The notes beneath the pieces are model-generated. The model was not told the origin of the DNA. It saw only the letters and a program-made list of their open reading frames with translations, and did not search any database. The position numbers and the translations under genes are program-made. 64,000 nucleotides of DNA from a virus: positions 51,493-115,492 of IMG/VR virus record IMGVR_UViG_3300035670_000055; one strand, 5' to 3'. Shown piece by piece: positions 4,484 through 57,878 of this stretch (position 1 is its first letter; every line of letters starts with the position of its first letter).

Positions 4484-7400
4484 CTACCCACATTTACTAG
4501 ATCCACAATCTAAACATTTATTACACCCTTCTTCAAATATTACATTTTCAGAACCGCAATCATTACACTTCACCGTAGACTTTGCGCCATCAGGAATATA
4601 TTTCTTTAAAACTCTTACAAGTCCTTTTGTAAAAGAAAATAAATCTCCATTACATTTATTTATCTGTTCTACAATAAACTTAATATCTGCGCCATGTCTT
4701 AATGAAACAGAGACTAGTCTAGTAATAGCAGCTTGTTCGTCAGTCATTTCAGAAGTAACACTTTCTGAATAAGTCTCCCCATCTTTTATTAAATCATACC
4801 TACCTTTATTAATTTTCTTCAAAATTAATTCTTGTTCATGTGTAAAGTATTCTGTCACAAATACTTCGTAAGGTTTATTATTAAGTAATCCTACAATAAC
4901 GTTATATTTTTTACCATTTGCATTGGTAGTATGGATTTTACATTTAAGTTCTTTAGGTCTTTTGGGAGCATCTACGTAATTAAATTCATCTCTTCCTTTA
5001 TTTTCTGTAGTAGAGACTAGAACGCCACTTCTTGAACCATCCCTATAAACCGTAATACCTTTTAATCCTTTATTCCAAGATTCAAAATAAATTTTAGAAA
5101 CTTCCTCTTCTGATACATTATTTGGTAAATTAATAGTTGAAGAAATACTATGAGTAGTATATTTTTGTATAATACTCTGCATTTCGACTCTTTTAATCCA
5201 ATCTATATCATTAGCTGTAGAACCATCCCAAGGAGTAGTATGATTATCCAAAAATTCTTTCGTGATTTTAACTAATTCTTCCTGTTCTTCTTTAGTATTA
5301 ACATCTAGAGATATATTGATATTGAATAATTTCATATAATCAATTAATTTTGGATGAATTACAGCATATTCTTGCCAACTATCCCCAGACTCGTCCACAA
5401 AATCCACTCGTACATTTTTATCATTAGGATTGATTTTTTTTCTCCTAATATATGGATGTAATGAAAAGATTGGTTCAATTCCAGATGTAGTTTGAGTTAA
5501 TAAACTTACAGTACCAGTAGGGGCTACAGTATTCCAAGATACATTTCTTCTTCCATGTTCAATCATTCTTTTAGCTTGATTAGGATAATTATTACTTATA
5601 AAATTATAAAAAGAATTCTCTCCACCTAATAAATTAAAATCTCCTGGAAATAAAGATTTCCAATCAAATTCTAAAGAACTATTCCAACCTTCAAATGGAC
5701 CTCTAAGTATAGCTAAGTCAATAGTACAATCTAATTCAGCTTCCATTTTAATATGCATTATTTGTTCTACAAATAATAAAGCTTCATCTGAATCATATTT
5801 ATATCCTAAAGCAGCTAATGTATCTCCTAAAGCAGTAAAACCAAGTCCTGTTCTTCTGGAAGCTTGTGCTGTCTGTTTAATTTTATTCCATAGTTCAATT
5901 TCTGTCCATTTAACTTCATTTGATTCTGAGTCTGAATTAAGTTTGTTTAAAATTCTATTAATATGCTCAACTTCTAAATCAATAAGATCATCTGATAACC
6001 TCATTGCTTCATATGTAATTCTATAGAATTTTTCAGAATCAAATTCTACATCTTTTGTAAATGGATTCTTAACAAAGGAATAAAGATTTAATGCTATTAA
6101 TCTACAAGCATCATACGGTTGCATAAAAATTTCTCCGCAATTATGAGCTATAACTCCTTGAATAACACCCCAATGAGTATCATCATTTAAACTAAAATCA
6201 TAAACTGGTTTAACTTCTGTAATTTTTGCAGATAAAATTTTTGGAGCTTTTGTTAAAATAAGTTCTTTTAAAGAATCTTGTTTATAATTATGAACAAATC
6301 CAATATTCTCTGCAAATTTTAATACTGCCCTATATTTTGAAATATTTAAATCATAAGATTCTTTGCACAAATAAATTCCATTAGAAAATTCAACTTCTTT
6401 AGCTTTATTTGTAGTAAAATAATTATCAATTCCAAATTCTTGTAATACATTAGATAATTCTAAAATTAATTCTTTACAAGTAGATTTAAAAGATATTCTA
6501 TGTCCTTTTATAATACTTCCATTAGCTGACCATAATCCTTTTAAAAACATTAATTTATTATCAGGACTCCAATTATAAAAAGTTGTAGGTAAAGTCCTAT
6601 TTGGTAAAATAGAAGAATCAAATCCTAATTCTTTTAAAATCTCATTAAATCCTCCTAGATAAATTTTTCCAGTAGTCTTTACATTAAATAGCTTAGCAAT
6701 GTCTTCATCTTTTTCACCAATATTAACTTCTATACCTAAATGAGCAGTTGAATCTAGTCTTCCTGTACAACCATCTCCTTGTATAAATCCGTATTTAACA
6801 AACTCATTAATTTTGTCATTTATAATAAAGAAAGGCATTAGTCTATCCTCTTTAGTTATAAATTGAGCTTGTTTTTCTGAACCATCTGTTAACATAAATC
6901 TATGATCAATTGTGGTTACAATTGTTTCTTTATTACTTAAATTTAATGTGTAAGTAGCTTTCTCTCCTGATTTAAATACTGTTCCAGATACAATTTTTCC
7001 ATCTTTATTTACAAAATCAATATCTTGACCTTCTAAATCTCCAATTTTCTCATACCCATGAGCTGTTAGTATTTTAGTTTCATAGCTAAAACATGGATTA
7101 GTTGTTACCCCTTTGAATTGAGGATAAACTCCATCAGGTGAATAGTTATGATGATTATCTACAAATATAATTCCTGGTTCTGCGTATCCATGAGCTGATT
7201 TAATAACTTCTTCCCAATATTCTTTAGCTTTAATTTTTTTTGTATAAACAACATCTCTACTTTTTATATGAGAGCATCTATACAATGTATTATATTCTAT
7301 AGTTTCATCTGGGTATAATAATTCTTCTGTACTTGAATTACATGGAAATTTAAGAATGTAATCTTCATCATTTTCTACAGCTTTCATGAATTCATTATTA

Positions 7401-37595: not shown

Positions 37596-38081
37596 TTATT
37601 TCTTTACAAAAATTAAAGGATTACGGAATGTTTTTTCTTCGGCTTCTTGCCATACTTTTTTTATCCCATTTGACTTAAAAGTATCACCCACACTTTCATA
37701 ACTTATTACTCTTTCAAGAGATATAGGGTTTTCCAACCAATAAAACCCTTTTGATTCAATAGCTGATTTGAATGATTTTAAGGCTTCATATAAAACTTCA
37801 TCATCGTATTTAGCCCTATAATCTCTATACATTATACTCTCTTCTAAATTTGAATAGGATTCTTCTACCAACTCACTTGCAATTTCTTCTGTGAGTTCTG
37901 AGCCTTTGCAGATAACCTCAAATTTGTCTAAAGTTGAAGCGTTAAGTTTAATTTCTTCATTTCCTATTTTTAGATACTTGCATTCTTTATTGATAAATTC
38001 ATAATCTGCTAATCTTGGAATTTTAACAATAAGCACGTCTTTTTTTAATTTTAGTTCTAATATTTTCATATTTTTATCCAC
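37596..38081 (-). CDS. Hypothetical protein
   Basis: ORF track; ICKGSELTEEIA..WQEAEEKTF recurrent family. Confidence 0.6.
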   Translation of the reverse strand: MDKNMKILELKLKKDVLIVKIPRLADYEFINKECKYLKIGNEEIKLNASTLDKFEVICKGSELTEEIASELVEESYSNLEESIMYRDYRAKYDDEVLYEALKSFKSAIESKGFYWLENPISLERVISYESVGDTFKSNGIKKVWQEAEEKTFRNPLIFVKK

Positions 38082-38084
38082 TTT

Positions 38085-38327
38085 CTACAAGTGGGAAGTT
38101 TTAAGGTTAAAAAGGACAATATTTTTTTTAGGTATTTTCTCTAATTTAGATTTTAGGCTTTTTAATGAGTGAAATTTACCTTTTATGTTATATCCAATGC
38201 TTCCATTATTATAAACTTGTTTTATTTCACGATTTGTTTTAGAGTTAAAACATTTATCATCAGAAAACACATAATTTTTAGCAAAATTTAATCTATATTT
38301 ACATAGATACTTTACTGTTATAATCAT
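38085..38327 (-). CDS. Small basic protein bordering the cassette array
   Basis: CFNSKTNREIKQVYNNGSIGYNIKGKF; too short for a tyrosine recombinase. Confidence 0.55.
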   Translation of the reverse strand: MIITVKYLCKYRLNFAKNYVFSDDKCFNSKTNREIKQVYNNGSIGYNIKGKFHSLKSLKSKLEKIPKKNIVLFNLKTSHL

Positions 38328-38340
38328 TGTTTTAGCCTTT

Positions 38341-38374
38341 GTGTTGTTTCGTCTATATTTGTGTTGGCAGCAAG
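38341..38374 (+). repeat. attI-like simple site / start of cassette 1
   Basis: GTTGGCAGCAAG (38363-38374) is complementary (11/12) to CCTGCTGCCAAC (38569-38580); no palindromic left arm seen. Confidence 0.45.
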
Positions 38375-38375
38375 T

Positions 38376-38639
38376 TTATTGAACCCACCACTCAACGACT
38401 TTACCAGTAACTCGGTCAACAATACAAGCCTTTGCAACTGTATCATCAACCAATGCTTTATATTCTTGTGCTTCTTTCAATGTTTTGACAGGTTCGGCAA
38501 TGTTTTCAACTTTCTTAAATCCGACTTCTGCAAAGCCTTTAAAAGAAATATTTACGACATAACGAAAACCTGCTGCCAACACCTGCTTTACAATAGCAGG
38601 GCTGACATCTACATTTTGAGCATTTGTAATTCTATTCAT
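38376..38639 (-). CDS. Cassette 1 protein; N-terminus encoded inside the attC-like site
   Basis: MNRITNAQNVDVSPAIVKQVLAAG is read from the bottom strand of the 38574-38705 hairpin. Confidence 0.6.
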   Translation of the reverse strand: MNRITNAQNVDVSPAIVKQVLAAGFRYVVNISFKGFAEVGFKKVENIAEPVKTLKEAQEYKALVDDTVAKACIVDRVTGKVVEWWVQ

Positions 38640-38705
38640 CTTCTGTACTTATTTGAAAGTTAGTAATTCTAATCCCTGCCATCGTAAAGCATTATACCGT
38701 TGTAG
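38574..38705 (+). repeat. attC-like site 1 (132 bp)
   Basis: TGCCAAC..GCTTTACAATAGCAGGG...CCCTGCCATCGTAAAGC..GTTGTAG; arms match 15/17. Confidence 0.75.
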
Positions 38706-38711
38706 GAAATG

Positions 38712-39038
38712 CTACAACTCTACAGCATAGCGTTCTTTTTCTTTTTTATAAAGATTTTTAAAGCTACCATTGGAAATAACTTTATTAAAACTATCCTTTT
38801 TTAATAAAATTTCAGCATTTAATAAAGCGTTTCCTGCCATTCTTTTAATCTCAAAAACACCACCACTTAAACTTAATTTTATTGATTTTTTTTGATTATT
38901 ATTTTCTCCATTTCCAATAAATGCAGTCCACATTGTAATTCCATTTTCTCGATGTTCAACAGTTATAAAATCTGCACTTTCAATATTAGCAGACATTGGA
39001 GCATCTATTATTTTTAAAACTTTATAATTTATTTTCAT
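38712..39038 (-). CDS. Cassette 2 hypothetical protein
   Basis: Bounded by GTTGTAGGAAATGC (38699-38712) and GCACTTCCTACAAC (39080-39093), 13/14 complementary. Confidence 0.65.
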   Translation of the reverse strand: MKINYKVLKIIDAPMSANIESADFITVEHRENGITMWTAFIGNGENNNQKKSIKLSLSGGVFEIKRMAGNALLNAEILLKKDSFNKVISNGSFKNLYKKEKERYAVEL

Positions 39039-39086
39039 TTTTATAATTTTTAGTTGTTAATATTTTTGTTTCCTTTCCCGCACTTC

Positions 39087-39166
39087 CTACAACACTATAT
39101 TTGCAAAAACGGCTCTGAAAAAACTTTGTGGATATCGCCGTATTCGCAAATACAAAACCGTTATCT
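39087..39166 (+). repeat. attC-like site 2 (80 bp)
   Basis: CTACAAC..TATTTGCAAAAACGGC...GCCGTATTCGCAAATA..GTTATCT; arms match 14/16. Confidence 0.75.
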
Positions 39167-39203
39167 GTAATAGAGCCAAAGCTTTATTTTTTACTACTAT
39201 TCG

Positions 39204-39527
39204 TTAATAAAGATTATGTTTTTTAAGTATCTTTTTTAACTTTTCGTTTTCTTCATATAGCACATTAAATCTTGTCATTGCACTATCCAAAATTTTTAGT
39301 AAAGCATAATTATCTATTAAGATTGGTTTATTTGCTAAACCTCTATATTTTACCATATTCAAAATATTTATTGAATTTTTAAATTCTTTTGTTTCGCTTT
39401 CATTTCCTACGATAACATAACAATCATTTTTTTCTGAAATCTCTTTTATTAATGTTGAAGTTCCAGAACTTCTGTGTCTAATCATAAAATCATAAACACT
39501 CTTAATTATTTCTTCGTTTTTTGACAT
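39204..39527 (-). CDS. Cassette 3 protein, degenerate mini P-loop-like
   Basis: HRSSGTST (Walker A-like, no Lys) and PILIDN (Walker B-like) in 107 aa. Confidence 0.55.
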   Translation of the reverse strand: MSKNEEIIKSVYDFMIRHRSSGTSTLIKEISEKNDCYVIVGNESETKEFKNSINILNMVKYRGLANKPILIDNYALLKILDSAMTRFNVLYEENEKLKKILKKHNLY

Positions 39528-39597
39528 TATTATATTTTTTATTAATTATTTAAAGTTCGCTTTCAGCTCTCATTTGCCATTGCTAAAAAACTTCTTC

Positions 39598-39678
39598 GCA
39601 TAACATCGGTTTGGTTCTATGGCGTGGAAAACACCTTGCGCATACACGCCACAGAAACCAAGCCTTTTAACGTTAAAA
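39598..39678 (+). repeat. attC-like site 3 (81 bp)
   Basis: GCATAAC..GGTTTGGTTCTATGGCGTG...CACGCCACAGAAACCAAGCC..GTTAAAA; one bulged base. Confidence 0.75.
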
Positions 39679-39915
39679 ACGTTCATCGTCATCTTTTAAT
39701 TTATTTGTTGAAAAGACTACTCTCAAAATAGCCGTAATTAATAAAAAAGGTAAAATAAAAGAAATTGATGCTGTTGGTGAATTGTTACAGCAACCGTCAC
39801 CATCCCAATGCCCGTTTCCTCCGTGTGCAATTGAAATTAAATGCCCTGGAGGACAATTATTTGGATGTTGTTTTGGAGGTCTTGGTATTTCTGAATTTAT
39901 AAATATATCACTCAT
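39673..39915 (-). CDS. Cassette 4 small Pro/Cys/His-rich membrane protein
   Basis: CPPGH..GCC then hydrophobic ISFILPFLLITAIL; TAA stop lies within the GTTAAAA core. Confidence 0.55.
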   Translation of the reverse strand: MSDIFINSEIPRPPKQHPNNCPPGHLISIAHGGNGHWDGDGCCNNSPTASISFILPFLLITAILRVVFSTNKLKDDDERF

Positions 39916-39943: not shown

Positions 39944-40081
39944 TTCCTGTGACAGGATTCGAACCTGTATGTTATCTTCAACTTTTTTGTTGTCTAATAG
40001 TTTGACAATCTGATTTGTATAAGACTTGCAAATCTAATACTCATTTGATAACCATGTGTCTACCAATTCCACCACACAGGA
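39944..40081 (-). ncRNA. tRNA-like RNA (Leu-type body) with anticodon arm replaced by a multi-hairpin insert
   Basis: Acceptor TCCTGTG/CACAGGA, D-arm GTGGAATTGGTAGACAC, T-arm ACAGG-TTCGAAT-CCTGT; about 90 nt central insert closed by GTTATC/GATAAC. Confidence 0.7.
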
Positions 40082-40618: not shown

Positions 40619-42571
40619 TTATTCTATATCTGGAGTTGGTCCATATATATCAAATTCTTTTTCTACAAATATAGAAACATTTTTCCAATAATCAGAAAAT
40701 GTTGATGGATATTGTCCTACTTCATCATGAATATATATATTTCCAAGCCTTTCTTCATAAGGATCATATCCCATTATATATCTTGAAGATACCTTTTCAG
40801 GAATTCCTAACCAAGTTTTCTGTTGTTCATAAGCTTCTTTTGTGGAAGGTTTCCATCTATACTTTATTAAATTTACATAAAGATTATCATATTCGTTAAA
40901 ATTAACTAAATCATTACAATTTAATACTGCAAAAGTTAAATCATTAGAATTTTTAACTTTATATATTTTTCCTTGAATAAAATAATCAGAAAAAGAATCA
41001 ATTGCTTCTATATATTCAGGAACTTCTGTAATACTTTCTTCTGGTAAAGAAATTAATTCTGCCCATTTTCCATTTTGAAATAAGAATCCTCCTCTTATGT
41101 GTGCCCAAATACTGTTTCCAAAAATTCTATAAGTATCAGAACCATCTTTTAAGACATATGTCATTCCATTAATAGAAATATATGTACAACCAATAGGAAA
41201 TCTTTTCTTACATTCTTCTTGAATTTCTTCCATAGATAATTCTTTTTTCTGTAATTCTGTTACGTCATAAGGTTTACCTCTTCTTTCATACTCGTCTATT
41301 TCTTCTTGTGTAGCATATTTCCAGTTTGGATATTCTGGTTTATATTTTACCCAACCATTAGTTATGGAATCTAAAGAATCATATTCAGGTTGTAAATAAG
41401 TTGAATCTTTTCTTTGTTTATAAATATGATTAGATACGAAGTCTTTACTATAACTATCAAATTTATCTGTAATAACAATATATTCTCCTTTTTTAAATTC
41501 ATTAGATTGTATTTTATCTGGATTATTGCTAAACCCTGTTCCATTACAATCTGGACAAGTATCTATTACTTCTGTATGTCCAGAAGGATATAATTTAGCT
41601 ATCATAGTTTCTCCTTCACCATTACAAGTTTCACAAAATTTATCTGGATGATCCAGAGGAAGAAATTCTTGTACTTCTTCTGCAGATATTTCTTGTATTT
41701 GTTCAACTTTTGATTTATCAAAAGTTCCTGAATAATTATAATCAGTACAGCCAAGTATCCAAGGAGACATAACAAGAGTATCTGTATATATATCTATACC
41801 ATTAACTTTACCATAATGATAACTTCCATGATTTTTTTGATACCATTTATACCATTTTCCAAATTCAAATTTCTGATTAATAATTTTATCAGAATGTCCA
41901 TCAGGTAAGTATTCTTGAATTTCTGATAAATCTTCTACTAACTTAATTCTTGTTAAATCTCCACTTGAACCAGTTTCACATCTATAACCACTATTTCCAA
42001 TTAATTCTGAATAAGATAATTTATTTTCTACAGGAATTTTGGAACATTTTCTATAGGCATTTTCACAATTAATTAGTTTATACCATTTACCAGGAATAAA
42101 TTCTATATTAGGCTCTTTAACCTCTTGTTCTGGAGAATAATCTTCTGGTAATAATTCGTATCTTATTCCTAAAGTTCCTTCTGATAAAGCGTTGCTACAA
42201 GAGTAGTTTTTAGAATTTGGAAAATCTACTTTACTTGAAGAAAATATTTTACCAACATCTCCTTTTTTTACTCCACTTCCTAAATGAGGATTGTCTACTA
42301 AAGCTCTAATATATCTACCAATATGTTGTGATAAATCATCAAAATATTCTTGTTGTTTTTTTATTACATAATCTGTATTTAGAAACAGCCAACCATCATA
42401 TTTAAATTCTTCATTTTTATCACAATATACAGTGTATTCATCAGGAACATCTATCCCTAAATAGTTATTCATTTCTCCATCAGAATTCCACTTATCTGGA
42501 CAATTATATTCTTCATCCCATAATCCATCTCGAATAAATTCTTTTTTTGTTTTAAATCTGTATTTACTCAT
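40619..42571 (-). CDS. Large mosaic protein of repeated small modules
   Basis: Recurrent (F)xxGKWYK starts and QE(Y/F)LPxxHxDK linkers; internal CETCNGEG..CPDCNGTG zinc finger. Confidence 0.7.
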   Translation of the reverse strand: MSKYRFKTKKEFIRDGLWDEEYNCPDKWNSDGEMNNYLGIDVPDEYTVYCDKNEEFKYDGWLFLNTDYVIKKQQEYFDDLSQHIGRYIRALVDNPHLGSGVKKGDVGKIFSSSKVDFPNSKNYSCSNALSEGTLGIRYELLPEDYSPEQEVKEPNIEFIPGKWYKLINCENAYRKCSKIPVENKLSYSELIGNSGYRCETGSSGDLTRIKLVEDLSEIQEYLPDGHSDKIINQKFEFGKWYKWYQKNHGSYHYGKVNGIDIYTDTLVMSPWILGCTDYNYSGTFDKSKVEQIQEISAEEVQEFLPLDHPDKFCETCNGEGETMIAKLYPSGHTEVIDTCPDCNGTGFSNNPDKIQSNEFKKGEYIVITDKFDSYSKDFVSNHIYKQRKDSTYLQPEYDSLDSITNGWVKYKPEYPNWKYATQEEIDEYERRGKPYDVTELQKKELSMEEIQEECKKRFPIGCTYISINGMTYVLKDGSDTYRIFGNSIWAHIRGGFLFQNGKWAELISLPEESITEVPEYIEAIDSFSDYFIQGKIYKVKNSNDLTFAVLNCNDLVNFNEYDNLYVNLIKYRWKPSTKEAYEQQKTWLGIPEKVSSRYIMGYDPYEERLGNIYIHDEVGQYPSTFSDYWKNVSIFVEKEFDIYGPTPDIE

Positions 42572-43298: not shown

Positions 43299-43516
43299 AG
43301 TTCTGTTGCTTCTTTGATTAATTGTTTTACTTCATTTGATAGACCTAACAATTCATAGGTGTTAACTAATTTATCTAACATCTCAAGCATTTCTGTATAT
43401 TTTGATTTTTCTAATGCTTCTAATGCACCTACTGCATAAGCGTTCAAGTCAATAGTATTGTTTTCTTTTGCTTTTTTATCAACTAAAGAATTTACTATTT
43501 GTTGTATATTTTCCAT
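43295..43516 (-). CDS. Hypothetical protein
   Basis: ORF track. Confidence 0.6.
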   Translation of the reverse strand: MENIQQIVNSLVDKKAKENNTIDLNAYAVGALEALEKSKYTEMLEMLDKLVNTYELLGLSNEVKQLIKEATEL

Positions 43517-55295: not shown

Positions 55296-57878
55296 ATGAT
55301 AATTAGATATACCAAAGATGCCACCATTAGGTATGCCTATCTAAACATTTTTCCTGACCAGTTTAAAACTGATAAAGAAAAGGAAAATGAAGGATGGATA
55401 AAAAACACCATGGATTATTTTGCTAACAAAGCGTATGCAGAATATATTAAAAATAGAGACACATTTGTAAAAAATTATGATCTCGTAAAAGGAATACTCA
55501 GACCAGAGGATTTCTTCCAAGAACCAGAAGTAAAAAGTTTTACAGATATATTAACAACTAATATACAATTACCAGCTTATGTAAAACATTATTCTATTTT
55601 AACAAATCCAATCAATGAATTAGTTGGTGAAGTTACAAAAAGACCAGATACATTTAAAGCTAAAGCATTTGATGATGATAGTAAGTCTGAAGAATTAGAA
55701 TTCAAAACACAAGCTCTACAAGAATTTATTCTTTCTCAGGCAAAACAGAAAATCATTGAAAAAGCTGCTATGGAAGGAGTTGAATTAGAGGATGAACAAC
55801 TTGAACAAATGACTCTCGATAACGTGAAGGACTCTCTGGATAGCTACACTTCAATTGCAGAAAAATGGGCTAATCATGTTCTTACAGCACAAAAAGCAGA
55901 TTTTAATTTAAAAGAAAAAAGTGAAGATGCATTTAGAGATTTATTAATTTCATCAAGACAGTTTTACCACATTTATGAAGATAATTCTAAATTAGGATTT
56001 AATGTAGAAGTAGCTAATCCTAAGAATACATGGTTTCTCACTACTCCTGATAGAAAATATATTTCTGATCCAACTGGTAGAGCACAAGGAGCTTATGCTG
56101 CTGGTACTGTACAAGTTATGGAACTTTCTGAGATTATAGAAACTTTTCCAGATATTACAAAAGAAGAGATTGACCATTTAAGAAGTTCATTACAAGATTA
56201 TGGATTAATAAATGTAAGAGAATCTAACTTGGGAAATCCCAATGCAGGAGATGGGATTGATTCTGTTACATACGATACATACGACCCGCTTGTATTACAA
56301 ACAAGAATGATTATTGAATCTGAAATGAAAGAAAATGATGATGGTTTAAAAGATTTTCTAGGACTTACATCTAATGTTTCTTCATTTGGATATAAATATG
56401 TAGTTGTAAGAGCCTATTGGATTTCTAAAAAGAAAATAGGAAAGTTAATATACCTGGATGAACTAGGAAATGAACAATCTACATTAGTTGATGAAACATA
56501 TAAATCAGGAGCGATTCCTACACAACAATCATTAGAATGGGGTTGGATTAATCAATGGTATCAAGGAATAAAAATAGGACCAGATATTTATCATGTAAAA
56601 CCATATAAACTTTTAAACTATTGTCCTATTATAGGTACAACACATGAAATAAAAAATACAGAAGCTAAATCTCTTGTAGATTTAATGAAACCTTTCCAAG
56701 TAATTTATAATATTTGTATGAATCAATTATATAAATTATTAGAAAAAGAAATAGGTAACGTTGCTGCTGTAAACCTAAGAAGAATACCAAGAGTGAAAGA
56801 TGGAGATGGACAAGACGATATTGACATCTGGGAAATGGAAGCTAGAGAAAGAGGGGTGATGTTTGATGATGATAGTCCTGAGAATACAAAAGCTCCTGTT
56901 ACTAATCAATCTGTTGCTAGGAATGTAGATTTAACAAGAACACAAGAAATTCAATCTAGATATACACTTGCTCAACAAATGAAAAATGAATGTTGGGAAC
57001 TTGTAGGTATGTCTAAACAAAGAATGGGTTCTATATCAGCATCAGAGTCTGCTACAGGAACACAGACAGCAATGCAACAATCTTATGCTCAAACAGAACC
57101 GTTGTTTGTAGCACATGAGTACATTTTAGGACAATTATATCAAGCTATTATTGATGCCTCTTTATATATTGAGTCAAATAAACCACAGTCTACAATTTCT
57201 TATATTACATCTGAAGGAGAATCTGCATTTGTTCAAGTGAACGGTACAGATTTAAAATTTAGAGATATTAAGGTATTCTTAACTAATAGACCAGAAGATA
57301 CACAAATGTTTAATGAAATTAGACAGCTATCTCAAGCTATTATTCAGAACGGTGGTTCATTATATGATGTTATTGAGTTGTATAGTACAAAATCTCTTAG
57401 AGAAATGAAGAAAACATTTAAGGATTTAAGAGATAGACAAGTACAAATGCAAGAACAAGCACAACAATTGGAGCAACAAAAACTTGAACAACAACAACAA
57501 GCATTACAGGCTCAATTAGAACAAGCTCAACAACAGCACGAAGAACAAATTGCTAATGAGAACTATAATAAAGGACTTGATAGACTTAATAAAAAAGAAG
57601 TGGCAATTATTAATCAATTAGGTAGAAATGAAAATGCTACAGTAGATACAGATAATGACGGATTAGCTGATGCATTAGAGATTACAAAAATGTCTACAGA
57701 ACAAGATAAGATTAATAAAGCACATCAAGCTCAATTAGCTAAAATAAATCATGATACTGAAAAACTAGCAATCGAAAGAGAAAAAATAAAAGTGGAACGT
57801 GAAAATATGAAAAACGATTTAGCTATAGCAAAGGAGAATGCAAAGAATAGAAATAAAAAAGATAACAAAAATAAGTAA
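55296..57878 (+). CDS. Portal protein (crAss-like)
   Basis: 860 aa after TerL; SLVDLMKPFQVIYNI, GMSKQRMG, Gln-rich C-terminal coil. Confidence 0.88.
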   Translation: MIIRYTKDATIRYAYLNIFPDQFKTDKEKENEGWIKNTMDYFANKAYAEYIKNRDTFVKNYDLVKGILRPEDFFQEPEVKSFTDILTTNIQLPAYVKHYSILTNPINELVGEVTKRPDTFKAKAFDDDSKSEELEFKTQALQEFILSQAKQKIIEKAAMEGVELEDEQLEQMTLDNVKDSLDSYTSIAEKWANHVLTAQKADFNLKEKSEDAFRDLLISSRQFYHIYEDNSKLGFNVEVANPKNTWFLTTPDRKYISDPTGRAQGAYAAGTVQVMELSEIIETFPDITKEEIDHLRSSLQDYGLINVRESNLGNPNAGDGIDSVTYDTYDPLVLQTRMIIESEMKENDDGLKDFLGLTSNVSSFGYKYVVVRAYWISKKKIGKLIYLDELGNEQSTLVDETYKSGAIPTQQSLEWGWINQWYQGIKIGPDIYHVKPYKLLNYCPIIGTTHEIKNTEAKSLVDLMKPFQVIYNICMNQLYKLLEKEIGNVAAVNLRRIPRVKDGDGQDDIDIWEMEARERGVMFDDDSPENTKAPVTNQSVARNVDLTRTQEIQSRYTLAQQMKNECWELVGMSKQRMGSISASESATGTQTAMQQSYAQTEPLFVAHEYILGQLYQAIIDASLYIESNKPQSTISYITSEGESAFVQVNGTDLKFRDIKVFLTNRPEDTQMFNEIRQLSQAIIQNGGSLYDVIELYSTKSLREMKKTFKDLRDRQVQMQEQAQQLEQQKLEQQQQALQAQLEQAQQQHEEQIANENYNKGLDRLNKKEVAIINQLGRNENATVDTDNDGLADALEITKMSTEQDKINKAHQAQLAKINHDTEKLAIEREKIKVERENMKNDLAIAKENAKNRNKKDNKNK

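Follow-up and report, generated by a model that had tools for sequence, protein, structure and literature searches.

Integrons are usually regarded as devices of bacteria, with the IntI integrase as their defining feature. In classical integrons, of which the superintegron of Vibrio cholerae is an example, a tyrosine recombinase is encoded at the head of the array with a docking site beside it, and each cassette consists of one open reading frame (ORF) and one imperfect palindrome, the attC site, with ..AAC and GTT.. cores and crossover at G|TT. Here we describe an array with the same cassette logic on the phage side, in a stretch of 64,000 nt (the window, to which all coordinates refer unless otherwise stated) of the IMG/VR virus record IMGVR_UViG_3300035670_000055. 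We consider it highly probable that positions 38364-39672 are three integron-type cassettes of an attC-like site family of Bacteroidota, present as an orphan array in a crAss-like phage.

The nearest published cases are the integrase-less attC clusters (CALINs) reported in phage genomes in 2023 (Qi et al., Front Microbiol, PMC9892861), among them that of Polaribacter phage P12002L, and several of the phage attC sites in that study were recombined by IntI1. CALIN phages resemble the present one in having integrase-less single-gene cassettes with AAC...GTT hairpin sites in a (virulent) phage, and P12002L is a flavobacterium phage with DNA methyltransferase cassettes, as are also found in arrays related to ours. 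They differ in that their sites were found with classical attC models, and PMC9892861 reports no phage-encoded Xer-type recombinase, no systematic inversion of ORFs and no crAss-like phage. With regard to bacteria, IntegronFinder 2.0 found no more in Bacteroidetes than In0 elements and a single complete integron, that of Salinibacter (PMC9024848), and chromosomal integron arrays store anti-phage defence genes (bioRxiv 10.1101/2024.07.02.601686). Full-text literature searches gave no description of Xer-type, inverted-cassette phage arrays, which is not proof of their absence.

The sites, their family and the cassettes

The record is a single viral sequence of 115,492 bp with 26.7% GC, rated 100% complete by CheckV, and the window is its bases 51493-115492. 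The genome has a crAss-like layout, with giant ORFs of virion and RNA polymerase type and a long leftward replication arm, and its family-A DNA polymerase (PolA) is 23-28% identical to the polymerases of crAss-like phages. The carrier of the array is a virulent-looking crAss-like phage of Bacteroidota, present in subsurface samples (runs X1-X4). From 36 to 50 kb of the window every gene is on the - strand.

The three sites, P1, P2 and P3 (Table 1), each run from AAC to GTT; the stem, of about 17 bp, is separated from AAC by a spacer of 2-4 nt and from GTT by one of 5-8 nt. They had been noticed in a first-pass annotation made from the sequence alone, and our limits agree with it to within 4 nt. 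A purpose-built scanner run on the whole 115-kb genome gave exactly these three sites on the + strand and one stray hit on the - strand, as against about 0.75 hits per genome, both strands summed, in random genomes of the same first-order composition. The stray hit, at 57016-57106, is within chance expectation.

A covariance model, R1, was built from an alignment of 71 non-redundant sites, with P1 in the seed and P2 and P3 outside it. All three sites pass this model of their own family, in a complete genome that carries no integrase, and the model recovers the two unseeded sites (scores in Table 1) and finds the family in other phages and genomes. The alignment has a 17-bp consensus stem with compensatory changes in 16 of the 17 pairs, and two mismatch positions and one wobble are conserved; the mismatch geometry and the spacer asymmetry are features for which the scanner did not select. 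Elsewhere in the 64-kb window R1 found nothing convincing: a + strand match at 43339-43452 (21 bits, rough E 0.009) is inside a 73-aa ORF with no convincing stem, and was treated as chance. Rfam has no family for the three sites. With its default filters cmsearch reported no match in the window, not even the seed member P1, which is recovered once the filters are off, and AT-rich windows may require this setting.

Sites of the family come in two sizes, one of about 72-74 nt and the other of about 124 nt. An exact search of IMG/VR with the stem of P3 led to a 21.8-kb viral contig (L001/G001) that matches the window at intergenic elements only and holds a row of at least 10 family sites, including two P3-like copies; eight more are on a 74-kb contig (G002). 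On L001 and G002 alike, the stretch of 9-15 nt that follows each GTT is the reverse complement of the one that precedes the next AAC, in a manner specific to each cassette, and this cassette-specific complementarity across G|TT is the signature left by crossover in a folded attC. One 20-base family motif is present at more than 120 loci in a collection of species-representative genomes, nearly all of them Bacteroidota (Flavobacteriales, Chitinophagaceae, Saprospiraceae, Cytophagales, Bacteroidales and Ignavibacteria), and units 122-126 nt long are often in rows. The site family is specific to Bacteroidota, and similar sites flanking other genes are present in many phages and Bacteroidota chromosomes.

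In the case of P12002L (L156, NC_028924) the sites tested in PMC9892861 are at about 29.2 and 30.0 kb and are short and of classical type. R1 gives a different site in that genome, at 39115-39252 (+) with 40 bits, which is not listed in PMC9892861. Because the tested sites differ from the R1 site, those recombination data do not support the present site family. The R1 site lies between gp55 and gp56, antisense to the genes, and adjoins a DNA methyltransferase and a Mom-like gene.

The array itself spans 38364-39672 and comprises three cassettes in 1,309 nt. The first-pass annotation had the array run to 39915, and in this it went too far: the stop codon of ORF A (TTA on the + strand, 39673-39675) begins directly after the G of P3, there is no site to the right of ORF A, and the gene looks like part of the backbone. 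The pairing of cassette ends that it had pointed out is real, and longer than it gave. Arms 38361-38377 and 38566-38582 are complementary at 16 of 17 positions and form the sole GC-rich long inverted repeat of the genome, and arms 38693-38712 and 39080-39099, the flanks of cassette C with GTTGTAGGAAATGC and GCACTTCCTACAAC, are complementary at 17 of 20. The ends of cassette B pair over 5 nt only (ATAAC/GTTAT), and because of this cassette B is probably chimeric.

The mobility of the cassettes is directly shown by comparison with other contigs. Cassette D has a counterpart in L157, an IMG/VR provirus-type contig that in its remaining genes has no relation to this phage, with 94.7% identity over 337 nt corresponding exactly to 38363-38699 and with unrelated flanks. 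This match begins at the G of the left GTT and ends at that of P1's GTT, and its limits give the + strand form of the cassette as TT...G: the ORF is inverted, and the cassette's own site is at the top-strand 3' end. The degree of identity implies that this unit has moved recently. The match also supports the proposal that the non-palindromic GTT at 38363 is the left end, as it begins exactly there, and a wastewater contig (X5) likewise begins to match at 38363. The left end has a 9-nt direct repeat, TTTGTGTTG, at 38338-38346 and 38358-38366.

ORF C has a homologue, 80% identical, in the viral contig L161, beside a different site of the family; the nucleotide homology is 85.5% over 38698-39041 and ends at P1's G|TT. 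In L001 the homology of P3 stops at GTTA and that of the right flank of P2 starts a few bases before GTT. The segments shared are 39155-39190 (36 nt after GTT, 94%) and 39528-39675 (148 nt, comprising the upstream module and P3, 82%), and between them L001 has an unrelated 67-aa ORF in place of ORF B.

We also aligned to the stretch the contigs of four wastewater runs, which as assemblies show mosaic contexts, not excision, and in which gaps in coverage carry no meaning. Five contigs match rightward from 39159/39160 and have the right arm of another site on their left, and several join about 39190-39211 to about 39549-39561 with ORF B replaced. Contigs spanning 39162-39584 carry copies of ORF B that are about 92% identical, and at P3 the summed contig depth is very high. 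The first-pass reading of the locus as an integron-like cassette array is borne out by these comparisons, in which, on the test that it had itself proposed, homology to unrelated phages and metagenome contigs breaks at G|TT junctions.

Table 1. Features of the array and its surroundings (window coordinates)
Feature	Position	Strand	Description
Left end of array	38338..38365	+	first G|TT (G at 38363), preceded by non-palindromic, possibly attI-like remnant (CTATATTTGT|GTT)
Cassette D	38364..38699	+	336 nt; inverted ORF D and own site P1
ORF D	38376..38639	-	87 aa, small alpha/beta protein
Site P1	38578..38701	+	attC-like, 124 nt, AAC...GTT; found by scanner; R1 111 bits as member of seed alignment
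Cassette C	38700..39160	+	461 nt; inverted ORF C and site P2
ORF C	38712..39038	-	108 aa
Site P2	39091..39162	+	attC-like, 72 nt; R1 52.9 bits, E ~3e-10; outside seed
Cassette B	39161..39672	+	512 nt; inverted ORF B, conserved ~70-nt upstream module and site P3
ORF B	39204..39527	-	107 aa
Site P3	39602..39674	+	attC-like, 73 nt, strongest hairpin; R1 35.4 bits, E ~4e-6; outside seed
ORF A	39673..39915	-	80 aa, Cys-rich, hydrophobic tail; backbone beside array, not cassette
ORF E	38085..38327	-	80 aa; occupies recombinase position of related phages; not a recombinase
tRNA gene	39944..40081	-	directly right of ORF A; 138 nt, usual length ~75
650-aa protein	40619..42571	-	DnaJ-type CXXCXGXG zinc-finger segment

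Recombinases and the polarity of the reading frames

The complete 115-kb genome has no PF00589 match at E <= 1, and tblastn with the array-head recombinases described below gave nothing in it at E <= 10, with no remnant, including at ORF E. The lack of an integrase noted at first for the window therefore holds for the entire genome. We call the array an orphan because the complete phage genome encodes no tyrosine recombinase and ORF E sits in its place. The suggestion that the enzyme comes from the host or from beyond the window survives in part: we infer that it is supplied from elsewhere, and the rest of the genome has none.

In bacteria the family is found with recombinases. A Saprospiraceae metagenome-assembled genome (MAG; G007:C29:209506-267500, JADKGL010000029.1) has at least 33 R1 sites over 55 kb, all on one strand, and this array ends 2.2 kb from a same-strand gene for a 363-aa Xer/IntI-like recombinase (L150 9420-10511), next to ftsK. 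The same layout of array and recombinase is found in a Bacteroidia MAG (G009, 422 aa) and at locus L047. These array-head recombinases match archaeal XerA structures best. Their alignment to Vibrio IntIA (2a3v) is split in two by a segment of 16-17 residues that in IntIA is about 50 residues long, and they score below the curated cut-offs (207 against 265 bits for TIGR02249, 215.5 against 220 for NF040815), so that the IntI-specific additional domain is absent. That domain is the criterion for an integron integrase (Messier and Roy 2001, as cited in PMC4889954); here the phage has no tyrosine recombinase and the array-head enzymes do not have the domain.

Many phages encode relatives of these enzymes. 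A search of IMG/VR with an alignment of eight array-head recombinases gave at least 555 viral contigs with such genes, mostly of 263-298 aa. Of the best 80 recombinase loci 43 have R1 sites, 196 in total; each of these sites is upstream of the recombinase gene, on the other strand. The ORFs of the phage arrays in those loci are co-oriented with the recombinase (23,067 against 1,749 aa). A docking motif, ..ATAAC|TAnTATATA.., is conserved 35-60 nt upstream of the start of the phage recombinase. In this phage there is no divergently oriented recombinase gene of about 266 aa right beyond the first site. Its position, as judged against 25 recombinase-bearing loci, is held by ORF E, which starts 36 nt from the first AAC/GTT of the array, and the left end, ..GCCAAC|ACAAATATAGAC.., has a weak and partial likeness to the docking motif. 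A 333-aa integrase of G002 was considered as an array enzyme and rejected, as it is in a cI-type lysogeny module and Xer models give it only about 30 bits.

The phage arrays also differ from the bacterial ones in polarity. In bacterial arrays the ORFs run with the sites (short spacer first), and in viral contigs they are reversed: counted per site, orientation is the same in 3 cases and opposite in 29 for viral contigs, against 94 and 42 for genome contigs (Fisher p = 4e-10). The opposite cases among the genome contigs cluster in few contigs, which may be phage. The bacterial arrays set the polarity of the sites, so that the + strand of the window is the top strand. ORFs B, C and D are all antisense to it, and the co-orientation of ORFs and sites that is a criterion for integrons is not found here. 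Being inverted, the ORFs are read together with the leftward genes of the phage, with each site upstream of, or overlapping, the start of its ORF (in P1 the start codon and first ~20 codons of ORF D are inside the site), and a Pc-type promoter would be unable to drive them. Family sites with antisense ORFs are also the layout in G001, G002, L002, L008 and L010 and in the 43 recombinase-bearing loci.

The likeness to integron attC sites that had been proposed thus stands for the logic of site and cassette; the enzyme of the family is not a canonical IntI but Xer/XerA-like, without the IntI domain and below the TIGR02249 cut-off, and the ORFs in the phages are antisense to the top strand. As in classical integrons, the sites of the family are uniform in length (about 124 nt) and one strand folds better. 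In this phage it is the coding strand that has the better-folding version of each hairpin: for P1 the - strand gives -16.2 kcal/mol as DNA and the + strand -10.4. Fold z-scores are -3.5 for P3 and -1.4 to -1.7 for P1 and P2. The complementarity of the R boxes is 9-17 nt here and not 7. In textbook attC sites the asymmetry is due to extrahelical bases, whereas here it appears to reside in the conserved mismatches and a 1 x 5 spacer.

Origin of the array and alternative explanations

The three cassettes would have been inserted at a GTT in a short spacer between the backbone genes ORF A and ORF E; we infer this spacer as the place of insertion because the ORF A stop follows P3's G and the left GTT is 36 nt from ORF E. 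On the + strand the plan of a cassette is TT, inverted ORF, R'' (..AAC), imperfect palindrome and G, so that crossovers fall at G|TT. In the family stem, of 17 bp with two conserved mismatches and an asymmetric spacer, the better-folding strand is the one that the phage transcribes. There are two settings for the family, one being large chromosomal arrays headed by an Xer/IntI-like tyrosine recombinase without the extra domain of IntI, and the other phage arrays with their own enzyme of about 266 aa beside the first site, reading away from the top strand. This phage has the array and a seemingly degraded docking-site-like end, without a recombinase. With no recombinase of its own, gain, loss and reordering of cassettes would have to be catalysed in trans, and the enzyme could be that of the host chromosome or of a co-infecting or resident phage.

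Several points weigh against this interpretation. No recombination was observed, and the run data are assembled contigs, which are unable to show circles or rare excisions. No close relative was found on a contig that extends far enough to reveal whether its site is empty or filled in another way: GenBank phages have no nucleotide match to 36-42 kb of the window, PolA as a single protein has no relative in IMG/VR, and the metagenome relatives of PolA (95-97% identical) are only on contigs of 1-4 kb that end before the array, so that cassette order is not comparable. In L157 the last G of the cassette is followed by G-A-T and not T-T, so that the insertion site there is non-canonical, and the resemblance of our left end to the docking motif of the family is slight. 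The count of compensatory changes is inflated, because the scanner selected sites for stem complementarity. Finally, the unpaired ends of cassette B and the differing ORFs in the same frame of two phages point to some homologous recombination within conserved flanks.

Of the other explanations, the first is that of a fossil array, in which cassettes once inserted by a recombinase are now fixed and the hairpins persist as RNA-level elements (terminators, stabilisers or translation controls) of the leftward transcript. This we think unlikely. It would fit a phage without a recombinase, with a diverged docking-site-like end, with the better-folding hairpins on the transcribed strand and with the start of ORF D in the loop of P1. 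Against it, scores with the family model are still good and the sites have kept the conserved mismatch geometry, and the 94.7% identity of cassette D in another phage implies recent movement. A role as intrinsic terminators was rejected: the stems are followed by a spacer and GTT with no T-run, and a terminator scan calls none of P1-P3 on either strand.

The second is homologous recombination between conserved intergenic modules with no site-specific enzyme, as is the case for exchange of the promoter-early stem-loop (PeSL) modules of T4-type phages, for which no dedicated recombinase is known. There too conserved intergenic stem-loops flank small accessory genes and unrelated ORFs share the same frame. 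In its favour, the window and L001 share both flanks (36 and 148 nt) around unrelated ORFs, wastewater contigs replace ORF B between the same flanks, and conservation of the 70-nt module upstream of ORF B goes further than the palindrome. We nevertheless think it very improbable as the explanation of the array, as the breakpoints here are at G|TT without flanking homology, the flanks of cassette D in L157 being unlike the window and offering no homology for that insertion. Homologous exchange would also not leave the cassette-specific inverted complementarity across each G|TT, nor does it account for the tight linkage of arrays to a tyrosine recombinase gene in fixed position and orientation.

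The third, that the palindromes between these small genes arose by chance or are ordinary intrinsic terminators, could appeal to the presence of intergenic hairpins in an AT-rich genome and to the modest fold z-scores of P1 and P2 alone, but we give it almost no credence in view of the three clustered and co-oriented sites where about 0.75 hits are expected, the model scores of the unseeded P2 and P3 (E-values down to 1e-10), the start of the L157 homology at 38363, the occurrence of the sites in many other genomes and the lack of T-tracts.

Two further kinds of element were rejected on anatomy, namely IS200/IS605-type ends and pdif sites; matching enzymes were not seen, and no transposase search was made. 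The pdif modules of Acinetobacter plasmids resemble the present cassettes in being single-gene modules with inverted sites, thought to be moved by Xer-type recombinases. However pdif sites are 28-bp double-strand Xer sites (XerC/D-dif-like), and those described here are folded palindromes of 72-124 nt with AAC/GTT cores.

Going beyond this locus, we put forward tentatively, as a possibility and not as our firm expectation, that Bacteroidota and their phages share an undescribed lineage of integrons run by short Xer/XerA-type recombinases that have no IntI domain. The phages would keep a pool of inverted cassettes, including DNA methyltransferases with a presumed counter-defence role, that are read with the phage genes, and recombinase-less phages would draw on this pool in trans; it would be the phage-side mirror of the chromosomal anti-phage 'biobanks'. 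The cassette logic found in this crAss-like phage and in many other Bacteroidota phages differs from that of integrons as usually understood in that the enzyme is without a domain considered essential for integron recombination and the cassettes are systematically inverted, and orphan arrays would rely on enzymes from the host or from other phages. If the sites are active, they provide a concrete mechanism by which small accessory genes turn over rapidly in phages of a phylum that is dominant in the gut and the environment, the cassette boundaries offer a way to list such genes, and there is a natural test of how an Xer-type enzyme handles folded single-strand sites. The contribution of this window alone is more modest, being one more recombinase-less member with three cassettes and cargo without recognisable family.

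Cargo and neighbouring features

Pfam and PHROG gave no family for ORFs A-F, among them the cassette genes B, C and D, which the first-pass annotation took for possible early or anti-host genes, and ORF B as a single protein found nothing in IMG/VR. ORF D has 54 homologues at 49-97% identity, in which the N-terminal 20 aa vary and the conserved core begins exactly at LAAGF, which corresponds to the R'' box. Its AlphaFold2 model has a mean predicted local distance difference test (pLDDT) score of 73.6 and no fold match in the PDB at E <= 0.001. The cassettes of the related arrays in G001 and G002 include N6_N4 and D12 DNA methyltransferases and a YopX protein, which are typical phage accessory genes.

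At the junction of ORF E and ORF F (38065-38104) there is a short hairpin motif (..CCACTTTCTACAAGTGGGAAG..) of which the unrelated contig L161 has two copies (4709-4748 and 4964-4991), immediately upstream of its homologue of ORF C. Summed contig depth in the wastewater runs is very high around the motif (37.8-38.2 kb), which may be a regulatory or repeat element widespread among phages. The last 100 nt of the record (G000) recur at genome positions 144-244, offset from the very start, which may reflect either a terminal repeat or overlap in the assembly.

The tRNA gene beside ORF A scores 36.4 bits with the Rfam tRNA model; in the anticodon arm and variable region, 80 nt take the place of the 15 of the model. 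It is not called by ARAGORN, and may be intron-bearing or otherwise interrupted. The 650-aa protein beyond it also matches PHROG families annotated 'anti-termination protein Q-like' (E ~5e-5), and may regulate transcription of the leftward arm.

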